The notes under the pieces: generated by a model
Seen by the model: the letters and a program-made list of their open reading frames with translations, nothing else
What the model was told of the DNA's origin: nothing
Databases searched by the model: none
Shown here: positions 9,106-51,701 of the stretch, in pieces
Layout of the letters: the number at the start of each line of letters is the position of its first letter
How positions within the stretch are numbered: position 1 is the first letter of the stretch
Made by a program: the position numbers and the translations under genes
From: a virus
DNA: 64,000 bases
Strand: one strand, 5' to 3'
IMG/VR virus record: IMGVR_UViG_3300028653_000014
Span: 19,070-83,069 of that record

Positions 9106-9953
9106 ACCGGCAGCCTCACGTACACCAGGTCTGGTGCGCCGTGCGCGCGCTGGTACGCCGCCTGCCACGAGAGCGTGCTGTCCGACGGGTCCATCCGGCC
9201 GCCCATGTTGACGCATGACCAGTCGCCGTTCTTCAACTTGCTCCGCAGGATCGTGACGTGCGCACCCGCAGGCTTGGTCGGGCCGACGAACACCACCCAG
9301 TCGCCCGGCTGCGCCTGGTTCGCCGTGATGTGCGGCAGCGCCGAGAGAATCGCCCCGGTCGCGCCATCACTGTCGAACAGCGGCTGCTGCGGGCCGAAGA
9401 TCGGATGGGCCAGACCAGCATGGGCGCCGCACCCGATCGCGTGACCTGAACAATCGCACGAGAACCGCACGCTGCCGTCCCAGCGGAGCGGCGCAACACG
9501 GAACCAGTCGCGCTCGCCGGGATCTTCACCGATGAGTTCGCTGTACAGGAACAGACCCTTGTGTACGACCGTCAGGTCGGCGATCTGGAGGAACAGATTC
9601 CGGAGCCGCTGCTCCTCCAGCATGGTCGCCTCGAACGTCATCAGGTGGACGCCGAGCGCGTCGAAGTACGGCTCCAGAACCGTGTGGGCGGGCAGCGTGT
9701 AGATCGGGTCGCTCAGCAGCCCGTGTGCGCCCTTAAACGACGACAGCACCAACTGGGCCGCCTTACCGAACCCGTCGGTCTTCAGGCTCATCCCATGCGT
9801 CCCGTGCGCCCAGTCGGCCAGCGCACGCTTCACCGCCCGGCAGTCGAGACCACTCGCGCCCGGGCCGAACTGGCGCGGGTACGGGACCCTCAAACGAACC
9901 TCAACCGGCGGGGAAGGGTCACCCGCCGGTAGCACAGGCGTAGGCGTCGTCAT
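9102..9953 (-). CDS. Endolysin: peptidoglycan-binding N-terminus plus NlpC/P60-like Cys-His peptidase
   Basis: GASGLDCRAVKRAL...DGFG; DCSG...AQPGDWVVF...AHV; downstream of membrane genes. Confidence 0.75.
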   Translation of the reverse strand: MTTPTPVLPAGDPSPPVEVRLRVPYPRQFGPGASGLDCRAVKRALADWAHGTHGMSLKTDGFGKAAQLVLSSFKGAHGLLSDPIYTLPAHTVLEPYFDALGVHLMTFEATMLEEQRLRNLFLQIADLTVVHKGLFLYSELIGEDPGERDWFRVAPLRWDGSVRFSCDCSGHAIGCGAHAGLAHPIFGPQQPLFDSDGATGAILSALPHITANQAQPGDWVVFVGPTKPAGAHVTILRSKLKNGDWSCVNMGGRMDPSDSTLSWQAAYQRAHGAPDLVYVRLPV

Positions 9954-16668: not shown

Positions 16669-17580
16669 CTACGCGTAGGCGTTGTTGTAGAGGACGGTCG
16701 CTGACGCGCCGACGATCTCGACGTGCGACCCGCCGGGAGCGATCTGGAAGAAGTCCGTCGCGGTCGCCGTCAGAGACGCGCCCAAATCGGTGGAGGAGCC
16801 GTCCAGGTAGACGGTGCCGTCGAAGAAGTTGATCTCCGCGTAGTGACCGCCAGCGATGGCGGTGCCGTCGTAGACGACCTGCTCCCCCGTGTCGGTGTCC
16901 GTGATCGTGAATGACGAGGTCGCCCCAGCCACCCGAATCACGGGAAACACTGGCGCGTCACCCGCGTTCGGGAGGAGCACCGGCCCCCCACCGTCAGTCA
17001 GCGCGGACGGGGTGTTCTCCGTCCCGTCGATCGCGTACGGGAACGGCGACTCGACCTGGAACGTCACATACGTGAAGTCGTCGTCGCCCGTACCGCCGAC
17101 TACCGGGTCGATCCACGCAAGCGTCTGGATCGCCTGCAGGAGCCGTGAGTCGCCCAGACCGGTCGGGAACCAGATGAGCCTCTGGGACGTGTTCGGCGTG
17201 GCAGACGCCGTCAGGAGCGCTTGCAGGTGCAGGATCAGATGCTCGTGCATCAGCCGCAGGTCCGAGTTGCACGCCGGGACCACCTGCCCGCCGCCGTCCA
17301 CGGTCGCCGGGTAGATGCCGTCCTCGCTGATCGCGTAGCGAACCTTGATCGTCGCGCCCAGCCCCGACGTGAACCTCGGATGCAGCACCGAACCGTCCTG
17401 TTGCGAGATGTTGTCGGCCGTCACCCGCATCGTCGGCACGATCTTGTACCCGTCAGGCTCGATCAGGAAGACCGCGTTGTCGACGCCGCCCGATGATCCC
17501 GCCGTGAGCACCTCGTTGAAGGTGAGACTGCCGAGCGGCGACATCAGCACGTGCGGGACGGCGAACTCAAGATTCGGCAT
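16669..17580 (-). CDS. Distal tail protein (Dit-like)
   Basis: Follows the tape measure; QQDG, SPFPY, NAGDAPVFPVI, FFQIAPG. Confidence 0.75.
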   Translation of the reverse strand: MPNLEFAVPHVLMSPLGSLTFNEVLTAGSSGGVDNAVFLIEPDGYKIVPTMRVTADNISQQDGSVLHPRFTSGLGATIKVRYAISEDGIYPATVDGGGQVVPACNSDLRLMHEHLILHLQALLTASATPNTSQRLIWFPTGLGDSRLLQAIQTLAWIDPVVGGTGDDDFTYVTFQVESPFPYAIDGTENTPSALTDGGGPVLLPNAGDAPVFPVIRVAGATSSFTITDTDTGEQVVYDGTAIAGGHYAEINFFDGTVYLDGSSTDLGASLTATATDFFQIAPGGSHVEIVGASATVLYNNAYA

Positions 17581-21763: not shown

Positions 21764-23188
21764 TCAAGTGGTCCTCGCCGCCTCCAAAGCCGGAAGTAGA
21801 AACGGCCTCGGAGCCGTGCGTTTATTCCCCACCCAGCCGACACCGCCCCCGCGCTTCGGATAAGCATGGGCCGTATTTCCATGCCCGAGTTCGACGTACG
21901 AGTTGCTCACCACCACGCCGTTCGCCAAAAACGAGTGAACGCCGTTTACGGCGAGGTCGTACAGGCTGGCGTGCCATGTCCCCTTTGACTTCGCCGCCTC
22001 GTCTCCGTAACGCCATGTCCTCAGAATGGTGGCCGGGACGACGCGGAATCTTTCAGGATCGACATATGACTTCGGGCCTGGGTTGCACACGACATAGCGA
22101 ACGCCCGCTAGAGGCTCTGGATCAATCGGCTCGAACGGCGGACGTGCCTTGTCGTAGAAATGAATGTGCGTGATCTCCACGCCGGGACAGAGGCGCAGGA
22201 GTTCTCGATCGCGCTCGATGTCTTTCTTCTGATCACGGTGCCAGTAGCCGCCGTCGGCCTCGATGATCTCGCGGCGCTCTGCATCGAAGAAGTCAACGAT
22301 GTAGTCACCAATCGGCACCTGGCGCTCGTAGTTCACTCCACGCTCATCAAGCCATGCGGCGACCTCGTACTCAGGTCGCGTCTCATGTCCCAACGCGGAA
22401 AGCTGTCTGTTCAGCCTGGCGCCCTGCTGACTTCGCTTCGCCGCCTCGGAAATCTTCTGGCGCGTAGCGTCAGAGCGGATGGCCCCAAGATGCGGATTCG
22501 CCCCGGCCGCCCATGCCTCATCCCGGCAGGCGGTGGAGCAATACCGCTTTCCTTGATTACGATGTGCGTCGAGGCAGTGATCGCACGTCTTTAGCAGTGC
22601 TGTTCCCTTGTTGTGAGCGAGTTTGCGCGTGGAATACAGCATGTCTCCATCGCGCAGGTCACCCGCGAAGATCCACTGATTACGCTCATCGCGCAGAACG
22701 AGAACGCGGTGATCGAGCGTCAGAGTGACTTGGTGAGTTCGATCTGATCTCCACGGCACTTCGATATCGATGAGTTCTGGCTTCTCGACTGCCGGAAAAG
22801 ACCACTTCCCGACGATCGGCTGGAAGTCTCCAGCCTGAGTGAGGACCTCTTCGCCTATCTCGATCTGACCGATAGTCCGCGGACCAGTTCTAGTCGTGAT
22901 CACAGTGTGCGCGTCGAAGACGCAGGCGTAACTGACGTTCGAGCCGATGTCGACATACGGGCCTTGCGAGTCGGCGCCTACCCGGTAGCCGATCGACGAA
23001 CGGAGACGGCCGGTGATGACGTTCGGCCCCGGCCGCCCCGTCGCGTTCGTCTTCGCGGCAGCCTCAACCCGGACGGCGCGCTTCACCAAGTCGACCACGA
23101 TCGCTTCGTTGAGCACCCGTGTGAACGCGGCAGCGTCGATCTGGAACTGGCCGAGCGTCGCCTGAATCTGGACATCGAGGACGCTCAC
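21764..23188 (-). CDS. HK97 gp10-like tail completion protein with intein
   Basis: Exteins TGRLRSSI...GSNVSYA|SYVELG...PRPFLLPAL give a 133-aa mature protein. Confidence 0.85.
   Translation of the reverse strand: MSVLDVQIQATLGQFQIDAAAFTRVLNEAIVVDLVKRAVRVEAAAKTNATGRPGPNVITGRLRSSIGYRVGADSQGPYVDIGSNVSYACVFDAHTVITTRTGPRTIGQIEIGEEVLTQAGDFQPIVGKWSFPAVEKPELIDIEVPWRSDRTHQVTLTLDHRVLVLRDERNQWIFAGDLRDGDMLYSTRKLAHNKGTALLKTCDHCLDAHRNQGKRYCSTACRDEAWAAGANPHLGAIRSDATRQKISEAAKRSQQGARLNRQLSALGHETRPEYEVAAWLDERGVNYERQVPIGDYIVDFFDAERREIIEADGGYWHRDQKKDIERDRELLRLCPGVEITHIHFYDKARPPFEPIDPEPLAGVRYVVCNPGPKSYVDPERFRVVPATILRTWRYGDEAAKSKGTWHASLYDLAVNGVHSFLANGVVVSNSYVELGHGNTAHAYPKRGGGVGWVGNKRTAPRPFLLPALEAARTT
21902..22924 (-). 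mobile_element. Intein (341 aa) with Zn-finger, NUMOD3-like and Vsr/DUF559-like endonuclease
   Basis: CVFDAHT start, TLDH block B, LYDLAV..HSFLANGVVVSN|S end; YERQVPIGDYIVDF...IEADGGYWH. Confidence 0.9.
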
Positions 23189-23721
23189 GAATAGCCACCC
23201 AACTGAATCCTTATTGGTATGGACCAGCCCGCCACGCCGCCCTGTGACTGCACCGGGATGGCCGGGTCGAACTGGAACTCACGCCGGTTCGACTGCGACG
23301 CGAACAGCAGGCCCGCCCGGAACTGGTTCTTCAGATAGTTCCAGACACCCCACAGGTCCGCGTAGCAGATGGCTGCGGCAGCCGAGATTTTGTCGGTCGA
23401 CGGGAGCAGCAGGTTCTGGCCGTCGTCTTCGATGCCCGGGACGCACCGGAGCACGACCGCAGTCAGCGCGATCAGGTCGACCTGGCCGGTGGTCGAGATC
23501 CGCTGCATCGGCTGGAGCGGCGGCTGCAACGGGTACGTGTCCGCGACGTTAGCGGCACCCACGTACACGAGCAGAGACGACGACGCACAGTCGAACGAGG
23601 GCGGACCCGGCCAGATGGCCTGGTAGTCAGGTTCACCACCGGGCGTCAACGCCAGCCCGGCCGCGCACGCGACGAGATACTCAGACGCGAGCGCGTAGAG
23701 TGCCTCAGGCCCGCTAGACAC
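23185..23721 (-). CDS. Tail terminator-like protein
   Basis: Position in the module; VVLRC, QGGVAGW motifs. Confidence 0.65.
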   Translation of the reverse strand: MSSGPEALYALASEYLVACAAGLALTPGGEPDYQAIWPGPPSFDCASSSLLVYVGAANVADTYPLQPPLQPMQRISTTGQVDLIALTAVVLRCVPGIEDDGQNLLLPSTDKISAAAAICYADLWGVWNYLKNQFRAGLLFASQSNRREFQFDPAIPVQSQGGVAGWSIPIRIQLGGYS

Positions 23722-24071
23722 GCGCCGCCCCCTCTCTGAGGGTTTCTACTCGCCCTGGTCGGGCAAGAGCGCCAGCAGGCTTAGGGCGCGTCCTGACGCT
23801 ACCCACACGGCACCTGGGTACCCGGGCGCGCGGCGCACGACACGACCATGCGGCCTGTGACGTCTGAGGCAGCCAGCGGGCCGGTTGGACAGCCGCGAAG
23901 CGGAGCCGGTTCAGATGCTTCCGTGAGCAGAGAGCCGCACGAGCGTCGCGGCGCAGCCGTGTCGCGTCGACCCCGGCGCTGCCCTGTCGCATCAGCACCC
24001 CCAGATACGCCGCCTGCGCCTCACCCGTCAGAGCACCATCCACATCGAGAAGGCTACAACGGCGCTAGAAC

Positions 24072-24103
24072 GAACCAAGGGCCACCGAAGTGGCCCCTGG
24101 TTC
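24072..24103. terminator. Hairpin
   Basis: GAACCAAGGGCCAC-CGAA-GTGGCCCCTGGTTC. Confidence 0.55.
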
Positions 24104-24157
24104 ACCTATGCGCGAAGGGAGACATGCGATCCCTTCACGGGATAGACTACTACACCG

Positions 24158-24175
24158 GGTAACGCGCGCGTGACT
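24158..24175. repeat. 18-bp pseudo-palindrome, copy 5
   Basis: GGTAACGCGCGCGTGACT, just downstream of a + strand TAGACT -10-like hexamer. Confidence 0.9.
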
Positions 24176-24248
24176 TAGCGGAACGCAGTAGATTGCGGCT
24201 ATCGCCGCTGAGACTAGATACCTCGGCCCGAACCTATCTGGCTTCTGC

Positions 24249-25151
24249 ATGTGCGGATGCGGTCAGAAGACCAATCTCGCCCGGTACAACGATCACGAGA
24301 AGGGGTATGTGCTCGGTCAGCCGATGCGCTATCGCCTCGGCCACGCCTTGGCGCGCACGCCGGTTATGCCGCTCGTGGCTCCTAATCCGTCCGGCTATTG
24401 CGAATGCGGATGCGGCGCAAGCACGCCCGCGGCGAAGAGAACCAATCGTCAGTTCGGACATCTAAAGGGACACCCCGTCCGCTTCATAGCAGGTCATCAA
24501 CTCAGGAATCTCTGGGAGCCGTCCCAAAATCTCACTGCTCTCTGTGCTTGCGGGTGCGGTGGTCGGACGCGTTCAGTGAAATGGGGGAACGCCTCCAAAG
24601 GGCTTTCCCGCGGTCAGGCTCAGAAGTTCATCCGCGGCCATCAACAGCGGAAACCAGTCGCAATCCAGGAAGACGAATATCTAGTCGCCGATCTCGGCTT
24701 CGACACTCCATGTTGGGTCTATCTCGGCCTGCTCGACCCGAAGGGCTACGGCATTCGGCACCGAACCGGAACGGGCACCGCACGTGCTCACCGTCAGTCG
24801 TACACGGAGTTCGTTGGTCCTATCCCATCAGGGAAGTCAATCCATCATCGTTGTCGTCACCCCGCGTGCATCAACCCAACGCATCTCGAAGCCATGCCAG
24901 TCTCCGAGAACACCGAACTCACACGAGGAACTCGACCGCCCCGCGCTGTCCGTCTACGTGTCTTTGAACGAGACGGTCACCGTTGCCGACGATGCGGTGT
25001 GACGAAGGAACTCAGCATCGACCACATCGTGCCGCTCTGTCGCGATGGCACCCACGACGAGGCGAATCTTCAGACTCTCTGCCGCTCATGCAACAGCAAA
25101 AAGGGCCGCTACTACTTCCTCGACGAACGCCTCGCTACAGCAACCCTCTAA
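24249..25151 (+). CDS. Free-standing HNH homing endonuclease (three CGCG repeats, two HNH domains)
   Basis: CGCG...KG...GH x3; IHHRCRHPACINPTHL; IDHIVP...NLQTLCRSCN. Confidence 0.9.
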   Translation: MCGCGQKTNLARYNDHEKGYVLGQPMRYRLGHALARTPVMPLVAPNPSGYCECGCGASTPAAKRTNRQFGHLKGHPVRFIAGHQLRNLWEPSQNLTALCACGCGGRTRSVKWGNASKGLSRGQAQKFIRGHQQRKPVAIQEDEYLVADLGFDTPCWVYLGLLDPKGYGIRHRTGTGTARAHRQSYTEFVGPIPSGKSIHHRCRHPACINPTHLEAMPVSENTELTRGTRPPRAVRLRVFERDGHRCRRCGVTKELSIDHIVPLCRDGTHDEANLQTLCRSCNSKKGRYYFLDERLATATL

Positions 25152-26332
25152 GACGAGTAGTCGGTACCAACGGCGCGAGCGAAAGTCTGCAAGTCAGGCG
25201 AGAAAACGGCCCCTTGACGACCTCGTCGCTGTCCCCCGGCGTATGCCTGCAAGAAAAGATCGGTGCTGACCAGACCAGTTGCCTTCGTTGGGTCAGCCCA
25301 ATTTTGGACGAGACCTCTGTCAACTTCTATTCCTTGCCGCACGACACGGGTGGCGCCCGCGGGCAGCAGACAGTCCTTCCCGTTGCAGGCCAGCCACAAC
25401 TGGTTCGCGATCTCGGTCGCGGCAGCACGGCCCAACTGGGGCGGGTCGATGCCCCACTGGTACTGGATCGAGAACGTGCCCGGCTGGTCGTCGTCCAAAC
25501 TCATGTCCTGGCAGCCGGGCCACCAGTTCGGCTCTGACGGGTCCCCGGGCGTGTCCATCCGCACGAGTTGCCGCCACTTGTCGAGCCGCCAGTTCCGGGC
25601 GCCCGTGTCAGGGTCGAACTCCAGCAGCGGCACCCCGCCGATCAGCACATCCAGGATCTTCCTCACCGGGTAGCCGCCGAGCCGGACGATCGACATCGGC
25701 GCGCACCCGAACTTGTCGCCGACCTCGTTGTACCAGGCCCAGCCGCCACCGCCGCCCCACGGCGCCGTCTGCCAGTACCACGGCCCCCACCCGTACGAGA
25801 CAGGCCCCGTGAGCCAGCAGCCGCACGCCTGGCTGCACGGACGCACCTTCCGCTGACACAGACCAGGGAAGCGGCGTCCTGAAATCTCGTAGAGCGCCAT
25901 CGACGCCTCGAACGCGACCGTGTCGAACGCGGCCGGGTTGGAACCGTAGTTGAACTGCACACAGGCGGCGACGTCCTCCCCTGTGATCCAACTGAAGCAC
26001 GGCCCCAACGTCGGGCCGTCAGGGACGCTCCCGGGAGGGTCGACCGCGGACGGGATCACGAACACCGTCCCGTAGATCGTCTCCGTCACCGTCGACCCCT
26101 GATACCCCGTCGACCGCCACCGGTACTCGCCGATCAGGGCAGGCACCCCGAGCGCGCACTCCCAATAGTCCGGCGCCGGGTTCGTCACCGCCGCATCGAC
26201 GCCCGACGTGAACGTCAGCACCGTCTTGTCCGGCTGCTCCAACTGGAACACAACCTCGGACGGGGACGGCTCCCCCTCCTGCCCGAACGTGGCGTCAAGA
26301 ACGACCGGGTTGCCTTCGGTGACGGTACTCAT
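25148..26332 (-). CDS. Head-to-tail adaptor
   Basis: LYEISGRRFPG.C..KVRP, WPGCQD, CLLP..ATRVVRQG, TGL..TDLF. Confidence 0.75.
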   Translation of the reverse strand: MSTVTEGNPVVLDATFGQEGEPSPSEVVFQLEQPDKTVLTFTSGVDAAVTNPAPDYWECALGVPALIGEYRWRSTGYQGSTVTETIYGTVFVIPSAVDPPGSVPDGPTLGPCFSWITGEDVAACVQFNYGSNPAAFDTVAFEASMALYEISGRRFPGLCQRKVRPCSQACGCWLTGPVSYGWGPWYWQTAPWGGGGGWAWYNEVGDKFGCAPMSIVRLGGYPVRKILDVLIGGVPLLEFDPDTGARNWRLDKWRQLVRMDTPGDPSEPNWWPGCQDMSLDDDQPGTFSIQYQWGIDPPQLGRAAATEIANQLWLACNGKDCLLPAGATRVVRQGIEVDRGLVQNWADPTKATGLVSTDLFLQAYAGGQRRGRQGAVFSPDLQTFARAVGTDYSS

Positions 26333-26357
26333 CGACGCCTCATTCTAAGCGGGGTTG

Positions 26358-26390
26358 TGCGGCCGGGGCGCCTGTGAAGCCCCGGCCGCA
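26358..26390. terminator. Hairpin
   Basis: TGCGGCCGGGGC...GCCCCGGCCGCA. Confidence 0.6.
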
Positions 26391-26404
26391 TCCTTAGTCA
26401 GTGA

Positions 26405-26812
26405 CTACCGGCCGAGATGCAGGAGTCTGTGATGCCGGATGCAAAGCCAGCGAACGTCGAGCGGCTTCGAGTAATCATCGTGATGCGCGTGAATCCTTCC
26501 AGAGCAGTCGTCGGACTCTCGCTCACATGGCTGAGGAACAAGATCACCGCGCGCAACGGCATTGAGCACGCGACTTCTAGCAACGATCTTTTCCGGCTCC
26601 CGCTTCTTACGTTCCAGCTTCTTCTGCGCCCACTCGTCGGAGTGACGGTGATAGGACGCTCGTGCTGCCGCCCGGTGCTGATCTCGATGCCCGACGACCC
26701 ACTTGTGGTGACGTGCAGCATTCGCTTCCCGACACTTTTCACACCTGCATTTGTGTCGTTCGTAGAAGTTGCGCGTACCGTGTCGTGGGTCGTCGGGGTC
26801 AAAATCGGTCAC
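26405..26812 (-). CDS. HNH-like / Zn-finger protein
   Basis: HGT...CRCEKC; HAHHDDYSKPLDVRWLC..HH. Confidence 0.75.
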   Translation of the reverse strand: MTDFDPDDPRHGTRNFYERHKCRCEKCREANAARHHKWVVGHRDQHRAAARASYHRHSDEWAQKKLERKKREPEKIVARSRVLNAVARGDLVPQPCERESDDCSGRIHAHHDDYSKPLDVRWLCIRHHRLLHLGR

Positions 26813-26821
26813 ACCCTCACT

Positions 26822-27469
26822 TTACGTAATTGGAGCGCTTTGGTACCCGCAGACAGCCGTCGGGACGGCCGTGTCGTAGAACCAGGCACCGTTCGGCTGG
26901 ATCGCCTCCGGCACGTCCGCGTAAATCCCCATCCCCCAGTTGCCGTTCGCGACGGTGAAGCCAGTGAACTTCGGCTGAGAGAAGTCGTTCTGGGCCGTGT
27001 CCGCGCCGCGCTGCCAGCGAGACGACGGGAACACGTAACGGCGATACGGGTACGGCGCCGACGGCTCGTGGTCGCAGTCCCACAGATCCTGCCACGCCTC
27101 GAACGCCGCGTACGGCTGCTGAGAGCCGCAAGGCACCTTGAACTGCACGCCGATCGGGAACCCGCCACCGTCGGTGATGACCGGTGCGCCCGTCAGCAAC
27201 TCCTCCAGGCCCGGCTCCAGCACGCCCTGGTCGAGTTCGAGGTTGAACCGCTTCAGGATGTCCTGACCCCGGTACGTGTTCAGAAGCTGGTCGCAGCCGC
27301 CCTTCTGGTCCTTCACCTCGCCCGCCAGCACGTCAGGCGTGATCGTCAACTGGATCGGCTTGTCGCTGACGTAGAGGTTGTTCGGTCCCGCGATGGGGTT
27401 GCCGAGCGCATCCACGCGAGTCGCCCGGATGTAGCAAAGATGGATCGCTCCATCACAGATTGCAGGCAT
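26822..27469 (-). CDS. Major tail protein
   Basis: IRATRVDALGNP, GGC, FEAW, RYVFP, NGNWG; position in the module. Confidence 0.75.
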   Translation of the reverse strand: MPAICDGAIHLCYIRATRVDALGNPIAGPNNLYVSDKPIQLTITPDVLAGEVKDQKGGCDQLLNTYRGQDILKRFNLELDQGVLEPGLEELLTGAPVITDGGGFPIGVQFKVPCGSQQPYAAFEAWQDLWDCDHEPSAPYPYRRYVFPSSRWQRGADTAQNDFSQPKFTGFTVANGNWGMGIYADVPEAIQPNGAWFYDTAVPTAVCGYQSAPIT

Positions 27470-27507
27470 GTTCTAGTCCCCCTCTCGGGATGTCGTTTGG
27501 TCTCTCA

Positions 27508-28554
27508 TCAGGAACCCGTGTTGCAGTCCGTAGAGCAACGATCCACCAGGACGGCCGCTTGTAACACGACGTCCCACACCGCCGAGTAGTAGCGTTCGGC
27601 CCGGTAGGTGAACGTGTTCGGGCGGCCATTCGTGGCGCCACTTGATGTGCCGCGGTCGAGCGCCTCCGTGCGGGTGTCCGGTGTCGTGAAGATGTCAGAG
27701 CGGCGCAGATCGACCGGGCCTGTCGCGTACGCCCACTCCTCAGTCGGGCCGGGTGTCGGATGACCGACAGGGGTCGACACGCCGACATAGCCGCCATCGG
27801 GGATGACCACGTTCCCGTTGATCGTCCGGATGACCCCGGTCTTGTCCTGGATCACGAAGCCGGTGCCCAGGAGGGCGGTCGCCATCATCGGGGAGCAGTG
27901 GATAACCCCGAGCGAACCCGTCAGGCCGATCGCGGCCTCCAGAATCTGCAGTGCATGGTTCGGTCTCGTCGCGACGTTGCCGTTCGGGAACGTCCCCATC
28001 CCGTCCGCCAGATACGGCTGCGAGGACAGGGTCGCGCCCGACATGAACTCGCGCGCGACCGCGAACGACTCCTTCGCCGCTATCGCGACGACCGCGCGGG
28101 CACGGAACGCCGCCTCGTCCGGCACCTGCTGCGACGTACACGTGATCGACTGGACGACCGTCAGCGTGTTGAACTCCGGCGGGGTCGCGTTCGAGCCGAA
28201 CGACTTCTGTACCGGGTGCGCGGCACACGCGTCCCACACCGACGGGGCATCCTCCGGGTACGGGTACACCGCGACACCGTTCAGCCAGCGTTCGCGGCCC
28301 GCGAGATCCGGCACATACACCTGCTCGTCCGGCGCGCTCGGAACCCGCAGCCAGATCGACCCGTCGGCTTTGCGATACAGGCCCGGCTCCAGAGAGCCGT
28401 CCTGGCCGATCGTTGAGTCGTCCACCGGGCCGATCGTCGTGTCGACGACGATCCTCACACCCGCCGCATCCGACGCCGCCGCCGGGACAAGCCCATGTAC
28501 TGGCGGAATCGGTAGGGGGCCATCTACGCGCCAGGTCGGGAAGTTCGCGTTCAC
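27508..28554 (-). CDS. Second capsid protein (pentamer/decoration type)
   Basis: Follows the major capsid gene; GVIH, RT..GN.V..GGY, YATGPV, AER.Y motifs of cluster-B-like actinophage heads. Confidence 0.65.
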   Translation of the reverse strand: MNANFPTWRVDGPLPIPPVHGLVPAAASDAAGVRIVVDTTIGPVDDSTIGQDGSLEPGLYRKADGSIWLRVPSAPDEQVYVPDLAGRERWLNGVAVYPYPEDAPSVWDACAAHPVQKSFGSNATPPEFNTLTVVQSITCTSQQVPDEAAFRARAVVAIAAKESFAVAREFMSGATLSSQPYLADGMGTFPNGNVATRPNHALQILEAAIGLTGSLGVIHCSPMMATALLGTGFVIQDKTGVIRTINGNVVIPDGGYVGVSTPVGHPTPGPTEEWAYATGPVDLRRSDIFTTPDTRTEALDRGTSSGATNGRPNTFTYRAERYYSAVWDVVLQAAVLVDRCSTDCNTGS

Positions 28555-28583
28555 GCCGCCCCCCTAAATGAGGTAAAATAAAT

Positions 28584-28607
28584 GCCGGGACGTATCCGCG
28601 TCCCGGC
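28584..28607 (-). terminator. Intrinsic terminator
   Basis: GCCGGGACG...CGTCCCGGC followed on the - strand by ATTTATTTT. Confidence 0.65.
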
Positions 28608-28640
28608 CCTCAACTGGGCCACATCAACCAGGGAGAAGAC

Positions 28641-29417
28641 GTGACCAGCAGCGAGCTTTGCACCTGCACCCTTTGCACGGCAGGCGAGCCTGTTCCGTAC
28701 GGCACCTGCCACTGCGCGTGCGGCGAGAAAACGAACCCGGCGCCGTTCACGAACCCCGCCAGGGACTACGTGAAGGGCGAGCCGGTGAAGTACGTCAAGG
28801 GCCACGGCTCCCGCTCGAAGGACTGGAAGAAGCGTTGGAACAGCGAGGGACCAAACCCATCCGGCATCTGCCAGTACAACGGCTGCGATCAGCCGACCCT
28901 GCTCTCCGCGAACACCGTGTGGCATCTCGGGATCATCCGAGGAGAGCCGCTCCGTATGTGCCCTAAACACAAGCACCCCGGACGGAAGAAGGCCACTCTC
29001 ACCTTCGACATTGAGGATCGTGGATACATCAGCGACGAAGGGGTGGCTAGCGACTGCCACATCTTCAATCGTGACGCCCGCGACGGGAAGAACGGCGTAT
29101 ACGGAGTCATCGGCGGAAAGTCGCGGCTCGCCCATATCGTCGCATGGGAAGCGCTCAACGGCGCTCTGCCGCGCGGTCTCACCCTCGACCATCTCTGCGA
29201 GATCAAACTCTGCGTCAACCCCGATCATCTCCGCCTCTCCACTAGAGCGGTACACGCCAAGCGGCACGCTGACCTGCGGATTGACAAGAACGTGATCTCG
29301 GCTATCCGCGACGCCCTGCGTACAAGTGATCTCACTCAGAAGCAGATCGCCGCGAAGTTCGGCGTCAGCCTCAGCTACGTGGGCAGAGTCCGCTCCGCCA
29401 TGAAGCGCGAGTCCTAG
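28641..29417 (+). CDS. Free-standing HNH homing endonuclease with C-terminal HTH
   Basis: CACGEKT...KGH; LDHLCEIKLCVNPDHL; TQKQIAAKFGVS. Confidence 0.9.
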   Translation: MTSSELCTCTLCTAGEPVPYGTCHCACGEKTNPAPFTNPARDYVKGEPVKYVKGHGSRSKDWKKRWNSEGPNPSGICQYNGCDQPTLLSANTVWHLGIIRGEPLRMCPKHKHPGRKKATLTFDIEDRGYISDEGVASDCHIFNRDARDGKNGVYGVIGGKSRLAHIVAWEALNGALPRGLTLDHLCEIKLCVNPDHLRLSTRAVHAKRHADLRIDKNVISAIRDALRTSDLTQKQIAAKFGVSLSYVGRVRSAMKRES

Positions 29418-29440
29418 ACTCCCACCGCCAAGAGCGACCG

Positions 29441-29494
29441 AGCGGTCGTGCCCTCCCGCCGATAAAGGCTGGAAGGCACGACCGCTTTTCTCTT
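29441..29494 (+). terminator. Intrinsic terminator of the HNH gene
   Basis: AGCGGTCGTGCC...GGCACGACCGCT followed by TTTCTCTT. Confidence 0.7.
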
Positions 29495-29527
29495 CCGTAA
29501 TACTCACTGAGATTAATCAGTCAGTAA

Positions 29528-31273
29528 TTACGAGTGATTCTGGTAGGAGTAGGGACAATCCCCAACAGCGACCGGAAGCGAAACGGCTCCGTTATCGCAA
29601 ACGAATGTCTCGACCGCAAGTGACTCCACACCAACGTAGGCCACATTTTCGAAACTTTCGCCGAAAAGTTGGAAATTGTTAAGCGCATTGAGTACGCTAT
29701 CCCGTACAATTCCCAACTCCAAAACTCCGCCGTCCAAATAGAGGAACGACCCCTCGGGGAAGAGGTACCAGACGACGGTCGGCGGGAACGTCAGGAGCGC
29801 CCCGTTCGCCTGGGTGCCGAACACCTGGCCGCGGCCGTTGGCGCCGTCGATGTAGTACGTCGGCTCGATCCCGAACGAGCGGAGCAGAGCCGTGACCTTC
29901 GCCTCGTCCGTGTCGAATCGCTGGAACTGGCCGCGGATGACGTCGGACACGATCAGGTCGACGGCCCAGTAGGGGATCATCAGCCTGAGGATCGCGCCCG
30001 GGTCCATCCGGTTGCGGTTCCGGAGGCCGTTCGCCGCAGCCAGGATCTGGCTGAACAGCGTGGCCGAGGCGCCCAGCCCGAGCGACCCTGCGGTCACCTG
30101 GGTCGAGAACGCGTCGATCTGGGTCAGGAGGTTCGACTCGGCCAGGCGAGCGTGGGCGGCGAGCACCAGGTTGTTCCACTGCGCGACAAGCTCCGGGAAC
30201 GCGCGCGCCCCGAGGTTGCCGAACTGCAGGCAGTGGTAGATGATGTCGACGTCGGTCTCCTGGAACGGCGGGCACGGGATCGTCTGGCACGACTTCGTGG
30301 CCGACGAGCCGCCCGCGGCGTCCTGCGTCTCGGTGATGAGGCCGACACCCGTCGTGACCGCCGAGAGGGCGGCCGGGCGTGCGTAGCGGAGACCGCCACG
30401 GTCAGCGTTGAACGACGGGAGGGCGCCCATCACGGGCCGGGTCGGCACCGAGATGTACTGCAGGTTGTAGTACGGCGTCACGGGGGCGCAGAGACCGCCG
30501 GACGCGACCAGCGAGTCGGGGGCGCCGTCGAGTTGCATCTTCTTCCGCTTCTCGAACTCGGCGTTGATGATGCTCTTCGACGTGACGGACGCGACGAGAT
30601 TCATGTTCTGCTCGATCGACTGTCCGAGCAGACGCGACTCAGGGTACTGGTCGTGCCAGTCGAACCGGCCGATCGTGAACTTCTCGTTCGTGTCCGGCCC
30701 GGCCTGCCCGAACGCCCGCTGGCGGTCGATCATCGCCTGGGCGAGGTCGAGGTCGGAGGTGAACTGGCTTCCCGGCACCCGGTCGGGGGCACCCGCGGCG
30801 GCCGTCAGCGCGATCGGCTTCTCCGTCGGCTCGTACTCGACGGGGGTGCGGTCGGCGGACGGGCGCGGCAGACGGCCACGCACGACAGGCTTCGCGGCAG
30901 CCGTGACGGCCGCTGCTTCCTCGACCGGCTCGGCAGGCTCCTCCGGCTCCTCCGGCGTCTCAGCCGCGGCAGTCGCGAGGTCAGCGAACGCGGCCTTGTC
31001 CTCGTCGGACAACTCGACCGGCTCGGCGGGCGTCTCAGCCCTGGTCGCTGCGGCGGCCTTCAGAGACTTCACAGTCTCGATGGCGGCCTTCGTCTCGTCC
31101 AGCAGGTTCGCGGTCGTGTACTCCGCGGTGATGAACTGGAGCGGGTTCGACGTGACGTCGCTGATCGCAAGCTCGTACGAGGCGATCAGACTCGCGAGGT
31201 CTTCGTCGGAAAGGGATGCGATGTCGTCTGGGACGGGCGCGAACAGCGGCTCGTCCAGGTTCTCGTTCTCCAT
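29528..31273 (-). CDS. Major capsid protein with N-terminal scaffold-like region
   Basis: SD AAGGAGG; acidic coiled N-terminus; LVASGGLCAP..YY, RGGLRY, C..IPCP, FPEL, LGIVRDS.LN..N. Confidence 0.85.
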   Translation of the reverse strand: MENENLDEPLFAPVPDDIASLSDEDLASLIASYELAISDVTSNPLQFITAEYTTANLLDETKAAIETVKSLKAAAATRAETPAEPVELSDEDKAAFADLATAAAETPEEPEEPAEPVEEAAAVTAAAKPVVRGRLPRPSADRTPVEYEPTEKPIALTAAAGAPDRVPGSQFTSDLDLAQAMIDRQRAFGQAGPDTNEKFTIGRFDWHDQYPESRLLGQSIEQNMNLVASVTSKSIINAEFEKRKKMQLDGAPDSLVASGGLCAPVTPYYNLQYISVPTRPVMGALPSFNADRGGLRYARPAALSAVTTGVGLITETQDAAGGSSATKSCQTIPCPPFQETDVDIIYHCLQFGNLGARAFPELVAQWNNLVLAAHARLAESNLLTQIDAFSTQVTAGSLGLGASATLFSQILAAANGLRNRNRMDPGAILRLMIPYWAVDLIVSDVIRGQFQRFDTDEAKVTALLRSFGIEPTYYIDGANGRGQVFGTQANGALLTFPPTVVWYLFPEGSFLYLDGGVLELGIVRDSVLNALNNFQLFGESFENVAYVGVESLAVETFVCDNGAVSLPVAVGDCPYSYQNHS

Positions 31274-31378
31274 CAGGTGTAGCCTCCTTGAACGCAAGTA
31301 GGGACTTCGGTTTGCGCTCGGCGGCTATGCCTGCCTTGCTACCGCACCCACTGGCTAAGCCGTGGTTACGATGGGTGA

Positions 31379-31407
31379 ATCGTACTGCGGTCTAGTTTTG
31401 GCTTGAA
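31379..31407 (-). promoter_or_regulatory. Late-type promoter CCGCAG-TACGAT with -35-like TTCAAG
   Basis: Same CCGCA(G/C)TACGAT occurs at 47484-47495 and 55407-55418. Confidence 0.65.
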
Positions 31408-31420
31408 ACCAGGGAAACCG

Positions 31421-31438
31421 GGTAACGCGCGCGTTACC
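31421..31438. repeat. 18-bp palindrome, copy 6 (perfect)
   Basis: GGTAACGCGCGCGTTACC, between divergent transcription units. Confidence 0.95.
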
Positions 31439-31520
31439 GCGCTACGGTGTTCTGCATGAGTGCCTCGACGCTATAGCCGCCCTACGGGGGGCGGCGCTGG
31501 AACGCGAGGAGGTACCCAAG

Positions 31521-47505: not shown

Positions 47506-47523
47506 GGTCACGCGCGCGTTACT
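47506..47523. repeat. 18-bp pseudo-palindrome, copy 12
   Basis: GGTCACGCGCGCGTTACT; overlaps the -35 position of the protease promoter (-10 at 47484-47489). Confidence 0.9.
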
Positions 47524-47827
47524 CCTCCTCGTACTCAAGCGGAATGTAGAAATGCTCGGCAAGCCACTCAACTGCCTCGGCGAACTCAAGTCCCTGAATC
47601 TCCTGGACGAACTGGATGACGTCGCCCCGCTTGCGACACCCGAAGCAGTAAAAGAGGCCCACATCCCCTGTACTCACGGCAAAGCTCCTCTTGCACTTTC
47701 CGTTGAAAGGGCAGAAGCCGACCCAGCGTTCACCTTGCTTTCTGAGAGCCGTCCGGTTGTCGATCAACTCCACAATGTCGACAACCTGCCGCACGACCAT
47801 GACGGAGGAGTCCTTGATACGCGCCAT
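47519..47827 (-). CDS. Stand-alone DnaG-type CHC2 zinc-finger protein
   Basis: DIVELI...GFCPF...SF...FYCFGC...GDVIQFVQEIQGLEFAEAVEWLA. Confidence 0.8.
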   Translation of the reverse strand: MARIKDSSVMVVRQVVDIVELIDNRTALRKQGERWVGFCPFNGKCKRSFAVSTGDVGLFYCFGCRKRGDVIQFVQEIQGLEFAEAVEWLAEHFYIPLEYEEE

Positions 47828-48681
47828 CACCGGTCGCTCCACGGCTCGGGCATTTCCCCGTTCTTCACAGCGAGAATCCCGACTTGCTTGCCGTCGCGCC
47901 ATTGGTTCATCGCCTTCAAGTTGTAGAGCAGCCATGTCTGGGGATGCTCGTTCGTCCGTTTTGCCATCGTAAGAATGGCCCATCTCCGATAGGTGAGAAT
48001 AGGGTCTTTCGCGGTCAGCCCTTCGCCTGTTGATGCGAGCCGCCAGAACTCCGCCGCCGCTTCGGGGTCGACGCGCGAGTTGAGATACAGCGCTACGGCC
48101 ACGGGCGTCCGTGGAATCCGTAGATTCACGTAGACAGATTTAGCGAGAGTGACCGCTTCTCGTATGCCGCCGTTGTCTTCTATCCACGTAAGTGCCTCTG
48201 ACCGTGACGGCCAGTCTGTCTGCTTGAAACGATGGTGTTCATATCGCCATGCCATGTTCGCGGCAGCGGCGAGGTCTTTCGACGCTCCTTCGGTCCCGGT
48301 GACGTGCATGGCGTGCTGAAGCGTTCTCGACCTTCCCGAGTCGACGAACTGGATCGCCCGCTCCTCGTTCGGTATCCCGCGCACGACGACGGACTGGATA
48401 GCGACCCCGGATTCAACGATGGCCCAGAGTCGATGCTGGCCGTCTAGGAGTCTCCCGGACTCCCCGAAGATGATGGACTCGCCCGTGAGGATGTACTCGC
48501 CTTTGCTCATGTCCCTGGCGATTCTCGTTACGACTAGCTGAGCTACAGGACGGTTGAGTCCGTTCAGTTCAAGCCATTCCGCCGCAGTTTCGGGCGTGAT
48601 GATTTCGATGGTCACACTGACGTCCGCCAGGTCGAGGGACGCCAGAAGATCACGGACTTCCAGTGAGGAAGATCGCGTCAC
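47827..48681 (-). CDS. ParB/Srx N-terminal-domain protein
   Basis: ITPETAAEWL..N..NR, LLDGQHRLWAI; SD AAGGAG before GTG 48681. Confidence 0.7.
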   Translation of the reverse strand: MTRSSSLEVRDLLASLDLADVSVTIEIITPETAAEWLELNGLNRPVAQLVVTRIARDMSKGEYILTGESIIFGESGRLLDGQHRLWAIVESGVAIQSVVVRGIPNEERAIQFVDSGRSRTLQHAMHVTGTEGASKDLAAAANMAWRYEHHRFKQTDWPSRSEALTWIEDNGGIREAVTLAKSVYVNLRIPRTPVAVALYLNSRVDPEAAAEFWRLASTGEGLTAKDPILTYRRWAILTMAKRTNEHPQTWLLYNLKAMNQWRDGKQVGILAVKNGEMPEPWSDR

Positions 48682-48734
48682 GGGTGAACTCCTTTTGGTT
48701 AAAGAGGGTCGACCCGGCAGGTGTGTCAAGTATG

Positions 48735-51701
48735 TCATTGCCCGAACGAGACTGAGCATCTGCAGTTAGCTACCTGCGAGACGTCACCATCTGGATCACC
48801 GGGGTAGTTCAGCGCGAACCCGTCAACGTCGAACGCCTCCTCAAGAGCGCGCTGCTGACCGTCGAGGCCGTCCACGAGTTCGTGTCGCGGATACAAAGCT
48901 CCCGGAGCCGTCATCCAAGTCTTGGGCATCGTCGAGCCGGTCGCCTGCCCGACGAGTTGCGCCGACGTGACCGCGGCGCCGTTCGCCAAACCGGTCATCT
49001 CCGTATTTCCCGTGTAGACGCCGTTCGCGATAAAGTACCCGTACGGCGTGCAGAGGTTGAAGACATAGCCAGCGAACGAGACCAGTCGACTCGCGATCAC
49101 GCGGTCCAACTGTATGTCTCCGGTCTCAGCGCGCGGGTGGTCGGGTCGGCTGTCGGCGTGGATAAGAGCGTCGTGCTGCGATGGGTCGACGCAGCCGGAA
49201 TACCTCGTCGCACTCTTCAGGAGGCTCGTGCTTTGTTCTTCGAGAACGGCGGGAACGTCCATAACCGCCGAGACGACATTAACGCTGCCGATGTGATCGA
49301 ACGCTTCAACTCGGGACGGGCGGTGAAAAAGATCGCCGGGGATCTGGACACGAGCGGAATTGTCATCCGACGAATCCTGCTCGAAAACGGGATCACCCCT
49401 CGAAACCCCGCAGAAGCAGGCGCTCTGGTCAATCGCCAGCAAGCCTCCGCACTCCGCGCAGAAGGGCGAATGTCCCAGTACGTCGGCTGGGGCGAAGACA
49501 TCATCGCCGAGATGCTCTCCGAGAGGGGCGAACATCCCGAGCGACAATTCCCCGTCGGGCCACGCAATCTCGACCTCGCCCTCATGCCCGTCGCCGTGGA
49601 AGTCTGGCTCTCCTCCGCTTCGCCTCTCAATGATCCCTACTGTCGCGACCGTCTCGAATATCTCAGCGATCGTGGCTGGTGGATTTGCTACATCTTCATC
49701 GCGCGCCGCACTCGGGTTTTGGTTCCCGAAGTAGCAGACGAGATCGTCTCCTTCGTTGAGTTCGCCCGCAGTTCTCCAGCCGCCGCGCGTGAGCATCGGG
49801 TGATTCGGGGTTGCGGTGAACTCGCGGCCAGATTCCATGACGATGACCGCCATGTCTCCCTCGTACCACCGTCTCGTGACTGCCCGCACCACAGCACCAT
49901 CAACAAGCGTCTCCGCGGGTAGACAGCGCGCGATCAGGGTGGAGCGGGTGACTGACGCCTGCTTCATGCCGGACCGGATCGCCTCGGCCGTGTCGGGGAT
50001 CGACAGTCCGGCCTGGTACGACTGGCCGATGATGTCCATCACGTCGGCCTGGGTCGTCTCGGTGATGTTCGTGACCTGGCTGGCGGACTTCGCGAGCACC
50101 CCGCTGATGAGCGGGTTGTGGACGTCCCAGTTCAGCCCGGCCGCTTCGAGGACAGGGGTCATGGCGGACTTGATGAACGCCTGCCGGATCGGCTCGGTGC
50201 GCGCCTTGATCTCAGCGATCAGCGCGGTCACGTCGAGGACTTCGGCCGGGGCGGGCGCTGTCCACTGCGGCGGGGTCGGCGTCGCGTCCTGATCGCCCGC
50301 GGCGGTCAACTGGCGAACCCCGGTCAGCGGGAAGTCTGCGACCACCTGGTTGCCCTGCACGATCTTCAGCGAGTCGAAGTGGAGTGGCGCGCCGAGTGTG
50401 GCCGTGTCGGGCGGCGCAGTCGAGTCATCCCGGTAGGCGATCGTCCCGTGTGGCTGGTAGCCGTGGTTGCGCGCGTAGTCGGCGTCCGCGACTAGCACCG
50501 CCGTACAGACCGCCTGGCGCAGCTCGACAAGCCCTGGCACGTCGGGAAGAACGATCGCTGGTGTCCCGTTGCCCTGGTCTTGGAACGCGCCGACACCGCC
50601 GACTGTCCCTTCGAGCGGCGGGTGAGACGCTGCGACGCGGGTGAGTGCGGTACGTACGGCGTCGACGGTCTCCTCGTCGGTGTCTCCGAGGTACGCGAGC
50701 GTCACGTGGATGTCCTCGGGCTTCTCGCCTCCCGTCTCAGCGATTGCGGCAGCCTCAGCCGGGCGCGGAAAGAGTGCGATCATGGTTGAGGCGCTCGTGA
50801 TGTCCGCAGCGGCCGTCAGCGCAAGTGACGCGAGCAGCGCGCGGCCTTCCTCCAACCCGATCGCACCGAGCGCGTCCCGGTCGGCACGGCGGGCAAGCGA
50901 GGCGGTGAGATGGTTCGTGACGCGGGACTGGAACGTGCGGGCCGCCTGCTCACCGGCCTGCTCTAGGATCGGCTGGATCGCGGCGGCGAGCTTCGGCTCC
51001 AACGCGTCGACGCGCTTCTGCGCCTCCGCCAGAACCTTGTTGTGGAGCAGAGGCGGGACGACCTTCGCGGGCGGCGCGGACTGCGGGGCGGCGTCGGCGG
51101 TCACGGCGTGGTCGGATTCTAGCCTCACCCATTCGTCACACACGTTCGACGGCGACACCGGCGCCCCGAACATCAGGCAGACGGCGTTCTCGTAGAACTT
51201 GCAGGTCGCGCAGGCCACGTCGGGGTCGTCCGATGCCCGGTAGTGGACGCGGGCCGGGATGCCGTCGTCCACAGGCTTGTCCCCATCTGTGGATTCGGCG
51301 AACGCCCGCTCGACGTGAGCCGCGACAATGGCAGGAAAGACGGCCTGGCGCGCATCTTCCGCAGTGGCGGGTTTGAGGATGTCGCTCAATCGAACCTCGT
51401 CGAACGCGGAGTCACGGACGACGCGAAACTCAAGTCCGCCCGGATTCGGGTTGGCGGCGGTAACGCGGGCGTTACTCGCAACCGTCCTGGCAGGGGAGAC
51501 CGAGGCTGGAACGCCGCCGTCCTCCCAAGCGTTGCAGAGCCGATCTCCTTGCACGGTCACGTCGAACCGTCCGCACTGGTCGACCGTCCCAGCGCCGTAG
51601 AACGAGCACGTCGCGCACGAGACCGCATGGGTCGGCGCAGGCCGGTACTGCTCCGACGCGGGGATCGTCCCGCGCCCGTCGTTCACAGTTCGCCCTTCCA
51701 C
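48735..51701 (-). CDS. MuF-like minor head protein with Cys-cluster repeats, a 2H phosphoesterase domain and an intein
   Basis: RSTLIAR|TE, KTW, RH, DGQ, YPGDP...NCRC; HVT and HGT 2H motifs. Confidence 0.85.
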   Translation of the reverse strand: MEGRTVNDGRGTIPASEQYRPAPTHAVSCATCSFYGAGTVDQCGRFDVTVQGDRLCNAWEDGGVPASVSPARTVASNARVTAANPNPGGLEFRVVRDSAFDEVRLSDILKPATAEDARQAVFPAIVAAHVERAFAESTDGDKPVDDGIPARVHYRASDDPDVACATCKFYENAVCLMFGAPVSPSNVCDEWVRLESDHAVTADAAPQSAPPAKVVPPLLHNKVLAEAQKRVDALEPKLAAAIQPILEQAGEQAARTFQSRVTNHLTASLARRADRDALGAIGLEEGRALLASLALTAAADITSASTMIALFPRPAEAAAIAETGGEKPEDIHVTLAYLGDTDEETVDAVRTALTRVAASHPPLEGTVGGVGAFQDQGNGTPAIVLPDVPGLVELRQAVCTAVLVADADYARNHGYQPHGTIAYRDDSTAPPDTATLGAPLHFDSLKIVQGNQVVADFPLTGVRQLTAAGDQDATPTPPQWTAPAPAEVLDVTALIAEIKARTEPIRQAFIKSAMTPVLEAAGLNWDVHNPLISGVLAKSASQVTNITETTQADVMDIIGQSYQAGLSIPDTAEAIRSGMKQASVTRSTLIARCLPAETLVDGAVVRAVTRRWYEGDMAVIVMESGREFTATPNHPMLTRGGWRTAGELNEGDDLVCYFGNQNPSAARDEDVANPPATIAEIFETVATVGIIERRSGGEPDFHGDGHEGEVEIAWPDGELSLGMFAPLGEHLGDDVFAPADVLGHSPFCAECGGLLAIDQSACFCGVSRGDPVFEQDSSDDNSARVQIPGDLFHRPSRVEAFDHIGSVNVVSAVMDVPAVLEEQSTSLLKSATRYSGCVDPSQHDALIHADSRPDHPRAETGDIQLDRVIASRLVSFAGYVFNLCTPYGYFIANGVYTGNTEMTGLANGAAVTSAQLVGQATGSTMPKTWMTAPGALYPRHELVDGLDGQQRALEEAFDVDGFALNYPGDPDGDVSQVANCRCSVSFGQ
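49005..49925 (-). mobile_element. Intein (307 aa) with no sense-strand endonuclease
   Basis: CLPAETLV, ATPNHPMLTRGGW..AGELNEGD, VFNL...YFIANGVYTGN|T. Confidence 0.9.
49065..49922 (+). CDS. HTH + Vsr/DUF559-like endonuclease encoded antisense within the intein (start uncertain; frame open from 48882)
   Basis: Two HTH-like segments; GEDIIAEMLSERG...ERQFPVGPRNLDLA..VAVEV...YLSDRGWWICYIF. Confidence 0.75.
   Translation: MASERDQSTRDHAVQLYVSGLSARVVGSAVGVDKSVVLRWVDAAGIPRRTLQEARALFFENGGNVHNRRDDINAADVIERFNSGRAVKKIAGDLDTSGIVIRRILLENGITPRNPAEAGALVNRQQASALRAEGRMSQYVGWGEDIIAEMLSERGEHPERQFPVGPRNLDLALMPVAVEVWLSSASPLNDPYCRDRLEYLSDRGWWICYIFIARRTRVLVPEVADEIVSFVEFARSSPAAAREHRVIRGCGELAARFHDDDRHVSLVPPSRDCPHHSTINKRLRG
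51459..51476. repeat. 18-bp pseudo-palindrome, copy 13 (intragenic)
   Basis: GGTAACGCGGGCGTTACT. Confidence 0.85.

Follow-up and report, generated by a model that had tools for sequence, protein, structure and literature searches.

Probable homing cassettes that join a free-standing HNH gene to a silently recoded virion-gene end in an uncultured GC-rich phage

Selfish nuclease genes can travel with a piece of a neighbouring gene that gives resistance, as in the case of T4 MobA with the gene 60 bypass insert and of the hybrid atp6 genes of Allomyces. Goodrich-Blair and Shub are said to have described in 1996, for the Bacillus phages SPO1 and SP82, nicking intron endonucleases of the HNH_3 type (the I-HmuI family) that compete through neighbouring or overlapping targets and carry flanking markers along. 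Closest to the case treated here is MobE of phage T4, a free-standing HNH endonuclease encoded between nrdA and nrdB, which, in the relevant part of PMC2790892, is described as nicking nrdB of phage T2; the nick is recombinogenic, its flanks are co-converted, and nucleotide polymorphisms are proposed to protect the carrier. For such nucleases the cleavage sites lie hundreds to thousands of base pairs from the nuclease gene, and resection must reach homology beyond that gene if it is to be inherited (PMC2988022, in the part drawn on here). Barth, Dunham and Seed (2023) described homing endonuclease gene (HEG) islands, in which genes for homing endonucleases flank essential structural genes on both sides; the islands are defined, in the excerpted text of PMC10448857, by high nucleotide identity between otherwise distant phages. 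Here we analyze 64,000 nucleotides (nt) of an 83-kb uncultured virus (the window; bases 19070-83069 of IMG/VR record IMGVR_UViG_3300028653_000014, ~65% G+C), in which the major capsid gene and the head-tail adaptor gene each end in a tract of silently recoded codons that runs up to a free-standing HNH gene (Table 1). We consider it probable that these are two homing-endonuclease cassettes, each made up of an HNH gene and a co-converted, silently recoded gene end that destroys the nuclease target, and that they move by intronless homing of the T4 MobE/Seg kind.

Like the genes for MobE and for SegF and SegG of T4, the two HNH genes stand free between conserved genes, both HNH_3 open reading frames (ORFs) of the window being flanked by conserved virion genes. 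The scheme proposed here would share further elements with these systems, as far as the sources drawn on describe them: a distant target in a conserved neighbour, a nick or break repaired from the carrier, co-conversion and, for MobE, polymorphisms thought to protect the carrier. The first-pass annotation of the window, made from the letters alone, had taken as its premise that free-standing nucleases cut a conserved neighbour while polymorphisms protect the carrier, which agrees with the portions of PMC2790892 and PMC2988022 used here. The differences are substantial: the whole 150-210 nt between presumed target and nuclease gene is saturated with silent changes here, whereas the same portions of the two papers describe only scattered polymorphisms between T2 and T4; in addition, the HNH genes lie antisense to the late operon, and their domain set comprises zinc-ribbon-like CxCGCG repeats, HNH_3 and a helix-turn-helix (HTH). 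The phages that host the recoded ends are uncultured, GC-rich soil phages. The SPO1 and SP82 nucleases are intron-encoded and located at their target, whereas those of the window are free-standing and associated with two tail types that switch ~21 codons apart within one conserved block. Unlike the MobA/gene 60 and atp6 cassettes, the arrangement lacks an insert, and no old gene end is left duplicated or stranded; any resistance would come from silent substitutions alone. The displaced gene-end remnant that marks hybrid-gene cassettes is missing: a tblastn search of positions 23000-31400 with the tails of HNH-free homologues returned functional tails only, the best other match having an E-value of 0.015 and the rest exceeding 0.2. 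The old gene ends have thus been replaced without duplication. In the parts of the literature on intronless homing, co-conversion and HEG islands that were consulted, we found no description of codon-bias breaks or wholesale silent recoding beside free-standing nucleases, and the excerpted text of PMC10448857 is silent on codon recoding and lacks the word "synonymous".

The capsid gene has an overall fraction of G/C-ending codons (GC3) of 0.87, or 0.92 upstream of the tail. In 20-codon bins GC3 stays at 0.85-1.00 to ~29740 and then falls to 0.55, 0.45, 0.55 and 0.70; the best change point lies 70 codons before the stop, at Y520/L521, and A/T-ending codons make up 32 of the 70 in this tail, as compared with 74 among all 589 of the gene (hypergeometric P = 6e-14). 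For the adaptor gene the change point lies 62 codons before the stop, at ~25337, where GC3 again falls from ~0.92 to ~0.5, with 30 A/T-ending codons among the 62 of the tail and 63 among the 394 of the gene (P = 2e-11). None of 5000 codon shuffles matched the observed segment score, either for the capsid or for the adaptor gene. When all called genes were scanned, low GC3 marked whole small genes, three inteins and the HNH gene of 300 amino acids, and the strongest low-GC3 segments inside high-GC3 core genes were the capsid and adaptor ends; the C-extein of the intein-bearing gp10-like gene (~21767-21895) is low in GC3 too. At the start of the capsid tract, 10 of the 17 codons of block A differ from DNA that is near-invariant in all relatives, including a TCC-to-AGC change at an invariant serine. 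The first-pass annotation had described G/C-ending codons in the capsid gene to ~29740 followed by ~70 switched codons, the same switch in the adaptor gene over 25148 to ~25337, an HNH gene beside each tract, an adaptor stop overlapping that of its HNH neighbour, and a tail that still reads as capsid-like. All of this was borne out: the switches by change points, shuffles and direct reading of the codons (for the capsid gene also by the GC3 bins), the identity of both neighbours by HNH_3 matches above the Pfam cut-off, the overlap by the sequence itself (25148-25150 on the minus strand for the adaptor stop, 25149-25151 for the HNH stop), and the capsid-like character by an amino-acid identity to relatives of 0.77-0.86 over the 22 codons from the switch.

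Table 1. Positions in the window of the two HNH genes, the recoded gene ends and the surrounding genes
Feature	Position	Strand	Remarks
Major capsid protein gene	29528-31297	-	589 codons; PHROG 777 major head protein, E 2e-72
Recoded capsid gene end	29531-29740	-	last 70 codons, GC3 ~0.54
Block A, L521-N537, LDGGVLELGIVRDSVLN	29687-29737	-	recoded in the window, near-invariant DNA in relatives; candidate target of the window's HNH
Block B, N540-E550, NFQLFGESFE	29648-29680	-	start of recoded tails in relatives L003 and L007; recoded in the window too
Free-standing HNH gene, convergent with capsid gene	28641-29417	+	258 amino acids; Pfam HNH_3 E 1e-13 (above cut-off), C-terminal HTH (weak matches); PHROG 826/1872 HNH endonuclease; GC3 0.80
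PHROG 779 protein gene (p779)	27508-28554	-	
Tail-tube protein gene (major tail)	26822-27469	-	
Small low-GC3 (0.62) gene between tail-tube and adaptor genes	26405-26812	-	PHROG 2340 "endonuclease", E 1e-16
Head-tail adaptor gene	25148-26332	-	394 codons; PHROG 783, E 2e-33
Recoded adaptor gene end	25151-25337	-	last 62 codons, GC3 ~0.52; begins at conserved RQGIEV motif
Free-standing HNH gene, convergent with adaptor gene	24249-25151	+	300 amino acids; HNH_3 E 2e-10 and HNH PF01844 E 7e-12, both above Pfam cut-off; GC3 0.63-0.64
gp10-like virion gene with intein	21764-23188	-	Pfam Hint/intein and DUF559 matches

With the capsid protein and an alignment of five members as queries, viral and metagenome collections yielded 56 loci besides the window. 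With complete 3' ends required and rows merged at an identity above 97% across the final 600 nt, the sample comprises 57 capsid loci (43 distinct) and 24 adaptor loci (17 distinct), one locus, L035, being the same contig as L003. The window and two relatives, L003 and L007, have a convergent HNH gene no more than 500 nt from the capsid stop (3/43 distinct loci), and the same three genomes carry one after the adaptor gene (3/17). In these three the GC3 of the last 50 codons minus that of the body is -0.35, -0.36 and -0.38 for the capsid gene, as compared with -0.15 to +0.12 in the other 40, and -0.32, -0.30 and -0.24 for the adaptor gene, as compared with -0.07 to +0.01 in the other 14. An equal GC3 drop in HNH-free relatives, fixed beforehand as the sign that would tell against a link with the nuclease, was looked for and is absent from the 40 capsid and 14 adaptor genes. 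Among the 43 distinct capsid and 17 distinct adaptor loci there is no full-length recoded end without an HNH gene, and no capsid gene among the 43 has an HNH gene without a tract; five of the distinct capsid loci have less than 300 nt of downstream flank, where the presence of an HNH gene is not readable, and none of the five shows the drop. At HNH-free loci the next gene starts after 53-228 nt, with one exception at 583 nt, and the HNH gene is thus polymorphic for presence and absence at the same place, both at the capsid and at the adaptor site. A further case comes from another virion gene: in relative L028 an intein-free gp10-like gene faces a convergent HNH gene, and its GC3 falls from 0.80-0.93 to 0.40-0.60 over the last ~57 codons, whereas in most HNH-free homologues GC3 stays high to the end. 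In all seven tract cases the tract runs from a point inside the gene exactly to its HNH side.

In the window, as in L003 and L007, two HNH genes enclose those for p779, the tail-tube protein and the adaptor, an arrangement that recalls the HEG islands, although the bracketed proteins are only 43-50% identical between the window and these two relatives, and the high nucleotide identity that defines an island is thus lacking. The gp10-like gene is used by selfish elements of two kinds: in L028 (L028:13461-14478) by the convergent free-standing HNH gene with the recoded gene end, and in the window by an intein that contains a DUF559/Vsr-type nuclease. Nine of the ten HNH genes in loci of the capsid family (the window, L003, L007, L028, L014 and L005) lie antisense to the late structural operon, the exception being that of L005. 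Among nearer capsids retrieved by protein search, P0002, with 89% body identity, has the same CPYSY-type tail, and P0013, P0020, P0022 and P0046 have similar tail ends. No match was obtained in the viral collection when the capsid-side HNH protein and the adaptor were used as single-protein queries, and no relative was found in the genome collection scanned with the capsid alignment.

From these patterns we infer cleavage of the relative's gene, the position of the cut, immunity of the carrier and copying by gene conversion, in the following way. Homing would start when a carrier of the HNH gene co-infects a cell with a relative lacking it; the HNH protein would nick or cut a block of conserved nucleotides close to where the capsid or adaptor gene of that relative ends on its 3' side, and repair would copy the carrier's DNA from the cut through the gene end and the HNH gene. 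The stretch from target to HNH gene would then always travel with the nuclease and so be part of the mobile unit. The travelling tail would encode a working protein end with silent sites fully diverged from those of ordinary alleles, and this divergence would remove the nuclease target in the carrier. A stretch that is an obligatory part of a mobile unit with its own history would account for several features at once: the tract begins abruptly on its upstream side and reaches the HNH side, it occurs strictly together with the HNH gene among the relatives, and no displaced remnant is left.

The recoding itself is confined to codon choice. Over the first 22 codons of the window's capsid tract, only 0.18-0.28 of the residues identical to those of relatives use the same codon, as opposed to 0.59-0.81 in other pairs. 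When six tails were pooled and the count was limited to positions where the residue is conserved and HNH-free genes clearly favour one codon, this wild-type codon was present at 32 of 87, as against 33.4 expected from a uniform draw among synonyms and 50.6 expected from codons chosen as in the adjoining HNH gene (P = 5e-5), while upstream control segments had it at 166 of 238 positions; in these counts, as in the nucleotide identities of tails and the conservation ranks given below, the HNH-free rows include duplicate loci, L035 alone having been dropped from the codon counts. The tract codons match a uniform draw among synonyms while the amino acids are conserved. Avoidance of wild-type codons beyond chance is not seen in the pooled tails, and active maximization of the difference is therefore not supported. 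In five of six cases the tail has a lower GC3 than the HNH gene next to it, a difference singly significant in one, the window's capsid tail with 38/70 G/C-ending codons against 206/258 in its HNH gene (P = 4e-5). Silent sites are thus fully randomized, beyond the level of the HNH gene, within the most highly expressed gene of a genome with a GC3 of 0.9. The cassette may have had a long history of its own, it may be under selection for immunity and for a lack of homology between cut and nuclease gene, or nuclease lineages with neighbouring targets may compete. A tail that is foreign at the protein level is not supported, as tail identity to the nearest relatives about equals body identity: body and tail values are 0.89 and 0.88 to P0002, 0.77 and 0.72 to P0004, and 0.67 and 0.74 to P0003.

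These data bear on the most serious alternative, passive mosaicism, in which the gene ends are recombination joints with a lower-GC relative, the HNH genes landed at or rode along with module boundaries, and the nuclease has no part in the tracts and no role in immunity. Phage genomes are mosaic, relatives of low GC3 exist in the capsid family (L057 with a body GC3 of 0.59, L053 with 0.74), the mobile genes of this genome all have a lower GC3 of 0.6-0.7, and some HNH genes have no tract. Yet a joint of this kind would have to extend from inside the gene exactly to the HNH side in every one of the seven tract cases and to be missing, at full length, from all capsid and adaptor loci without an HNH gene. 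None of the low-GC relatives resembles the tail; the highest nucleotide identities between the tails and HNH-free homologues are 0.52-0.62 (0.55-0.82 for the upstream segments). The tail amino acids are no more foreign than those of the body, tail GC3 is lower than in the adjoining HNH gene in five of six cases, and wild-type codons are matched less often than the codon usage of that gene would predict. We consider passive mosaicism unlikely.

The positions of the switches are compatible with the homing-cassette reading and permit a tentative placement of targets. In L003 and L007 block A keeps its ordinary codons, and the switch occurs ~21 codons later than in the window, at N-V-F-Q-L-F-G-E, with several unusual codons in common between the two; switch points ~21 codons apart imply at least two tail types and at least two events. 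When nucleotide conservation was ranked over 30-nt windows of the HNH-free homologues (54 rows), the windows at codons 540, 524 and 513 were 2nd, 3rd and 5th in the whole capsid gene (29651-29680 being 2nd, and 29699-29728 and 29732-29761 being 3rd and 5th), so that the capsid switches coincide with the best-conserved DNA in the 3' half. In the adaptor gene, the RQGIEV motif is written with CAA and AGA in 3/3 HNH-bearing genomes and in 0/5 aligned HNH-free ones, all five of which have CAG and a codon other than AGA (CGN in four, CTG in L028). The first-pass annotation had proposed that the switch marks the target site. It would do so only approximately, since any point between the switch and the HNH gene could be the target, which we expect at or downstream of the switch.

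A smaller silent cluster was seen at block B in the absence of an HNH gene. The capsid genes of L014 (L014:7001-8764) and L015, a close HNH-free pair, differ at 114 of 1761 nt, 76 of them within the first 270 nt; ten silent differences fall into a single 90-nt bin at block B (NQFQIFGESFEN...), where L014 uses A/T-ending codons, and the fourteen preceding bins total 19. Past nuclease activity or gene conversion may have left this cluster as a small trace.

The same cluster points to a local hot spot and could be cited for a second alternative, self-inflicted local mutagenesis, in which residual nicking of the carrier's own allele followed by error-prone repair scrambles silent sites in situ under purifying selection, with no donor DNA. 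Fully randomized silent sites with retained amino acids are what such a process would leave. The tracts, however, have an abrupt upstream boundary and reach the gene end instead of lying symmetrically about a site, and the TCC-to-AGC switch at the invariant serine requires non-synonymous intermediates. The recoded codons common to the tail starts of L003 and L007 are also better explained by a ready-made tail that was inherited or transferred, and we regard local mutagenesis as improbable, more so than mosaicism. Rare-codon runs can tune co-translational folding, and A/T-ending 3' codons might accordingly slow translation or shape an RNA element for folding or operon expression independently of any HNH gene, a function of the genes themselves that is very improbable given that 40/40 distinct HNH-free capsid and 14/14 adaptor genes lack the full drop despite encoding the same conserved protein ends.

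A number of observations weigh against the homing-cassette reading or restrict its reach. The HNH-bearing genomes are three, and the association rests on few independent events. A near-identical HNH gene and tail in two distant genomes, the hallmark of recent homing, was not found among the relatives: the tails of the window and of L003/L007 have the same codon at only 0.19-0.37 of identical residues, and an exact 33-nt search of the viral collection for the window's recoded block found no other carrier. HNH proteins that occupy one site share only 32-40% identity, and the tree built from them has 0/8 starred branches; site-specific HNH lineages are therefore not supported. The adaptor switch falls outside the eight most conserved windows of its gene. 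No tract flanks, on either side, the fused double HNH gene that L007 carries between the genes for p779 and the tail-tube protein; the HNH gene of L005 likewise lacks one, and that of L014 lacks one in the upstream gene, with an ambiguous low-GC3 start in the downstream ORF. In a wider survey, a scan with four aligned HNH proteins, the best 32 of 56 loci were analyzed and GC3 drops of at least 0.2 counted in genes with a GC3 of at least 0.75. A drop was found at 1/2 convergent ends (the capsid gene of L003 itself), 0/7 upstream co-directional ends and 1/53 non-adjacent 3' ends; 5' ends were noisy (1/3 and 1/6, and 6/53 when non-adjacent), and the apparent 5' tracts of L068 and L074 rest on doubtful ORF starts. 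Related HNH genes thus show no general association with tracts in the best 32 of 56 loci.

The same genome holds three more HNH_3 genes above the Pfam cut-off, making five in 83 kb; the one at 63459-63977 (minus strand) has a neighbour without a recoded tract, and those outside the window (G000 ~9400-9880 and 16923-17528) are surrounded by low-GC3 genes and ambiguous. The proposal of the first-pass annotation that each HNH gene carries a replacement gene end therefore fits at the capsid and adaptor sites, where HNH-free relatives lack the drop, no full recoded end occurs without an HNH gene and no remnant is found, but it fails as a rule for all HNH genes in view of the tractless ones and of the wider survey. 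Its listing of shorter tracts as further examples did not stand, as these are post hoc and uncorrected and similar segment scores are common in HNH-free genes: the last seven codons of the tail-tube gene (4/7 A/T-ending, P = 0.009) and its first 13 (P = 0.0006), the last 19 codons of p779 (P = 0.06), and the last 20 of the MuF-like gene (P = 0.014). The gene adjoining the MuF-like end (47827-48759) matches PHROG 5931 only, a family of unknown function.

Directly after the MuF-like gene, inside the structural region, lie a DnaG-type CHC2 zinc-finger ORF (47519-47983, minus strand; Pfam E 1e-25) and, overlapping it in another frame, the 47827-48759 gene just mentioned (minus strand; 310 amino acids, low GC3); together these may represent a frameshifted or mobile primase-like gene. 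An ERF-family recombinase gene (4310-5626) has a GC3 of 0.50 over its N-terminal ~140 codons (5165-5581, minus strand) and a higher value downstream, which places it among the strongest low-GC3 segments of the window. The small gene between the tail-tube and adaptor genes occupies the same place in L007, L027 and L028 and is absent in L003 and L004. The pattern C..C..AHHDDY..WLC..HH..HH is conserved in its product in four genomes, with no Pfam match at E<0.01; we take this pattern to be HNH-like, and the product is probably a small HNH-type nuclease, judging from the sequence. The double HNH_3 protein of L007 (L007:10029-11108, minus strand; 359 amino acids) and the 300-amino-acid HNH protein of the window have paired nickase domains, which, if active, could make double-strand breaks. 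In phmmer searches of solved structures, the latter matched small HNH nucleases through its second domain, and the 258-amino-acid HNH protein gave chance matches only.

The minus strand holds nearly every gene of the window. The nearest capsid from a cultured phage is that of Arthrobacter phage Atuin, at 38% protein identity, and neither a megablast search of positions 24000-31400 nor a tblastn search with the 300-amino-acid HNH protein at E 1e-15 found a match among cultured phages. Rhizosphere metagenome runs from 2019 contain the stretch. Contigs of four public runs (X11, X14, X16 and X18), compared with 23000-31500 at 80% likeness, are short, of low depth and mostly identical to the window, and from such contigs no HNH-less form of the region is readable. 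In 4/4 runs, contigs with a depth of 7-14 connect 26917 with 23075 through 27 additional letters that are identical between the runs, and in one run a contig joins 30326 to 28463; both odd joints probably derive from other organisms.

If the two gene ends are parts of homing cassettes, as we consider probable, the capsid and adaptor genes are chimeras whose 3' ends have a separate history, which would affect capsid-based phylogeny and silent-site clocks. A sharp break in codon bias beside a free-standing nuclease gene would offer a sequence-only way to delimit a homing cassette, and, by narrowing the nuclease target to a few dozen bases, would make the HNH nickases of uncultured phages directly testable. 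We also entertain, with considerable doubt, the possibility that the recoded end is no passive passenger but has evolved into a working part of the selfish cassette, its silent sites being held fully randomized. Such an end would abolish the targets of HNH lineages that attack neighbouring motifs within one conserved block and would remove homology between the cut and the nuclease gene, a "linkage insurance" by which repair of a cut rival genome could not resolve before the nuclease gene has been copied. If this were true, competing HNH lineages would drive an arms race at the silent positions of capsid genes, and, if the divergence is actively maintained, a selfish element would profit from selection on silent positions within the gene that the phage expresses most strongly.

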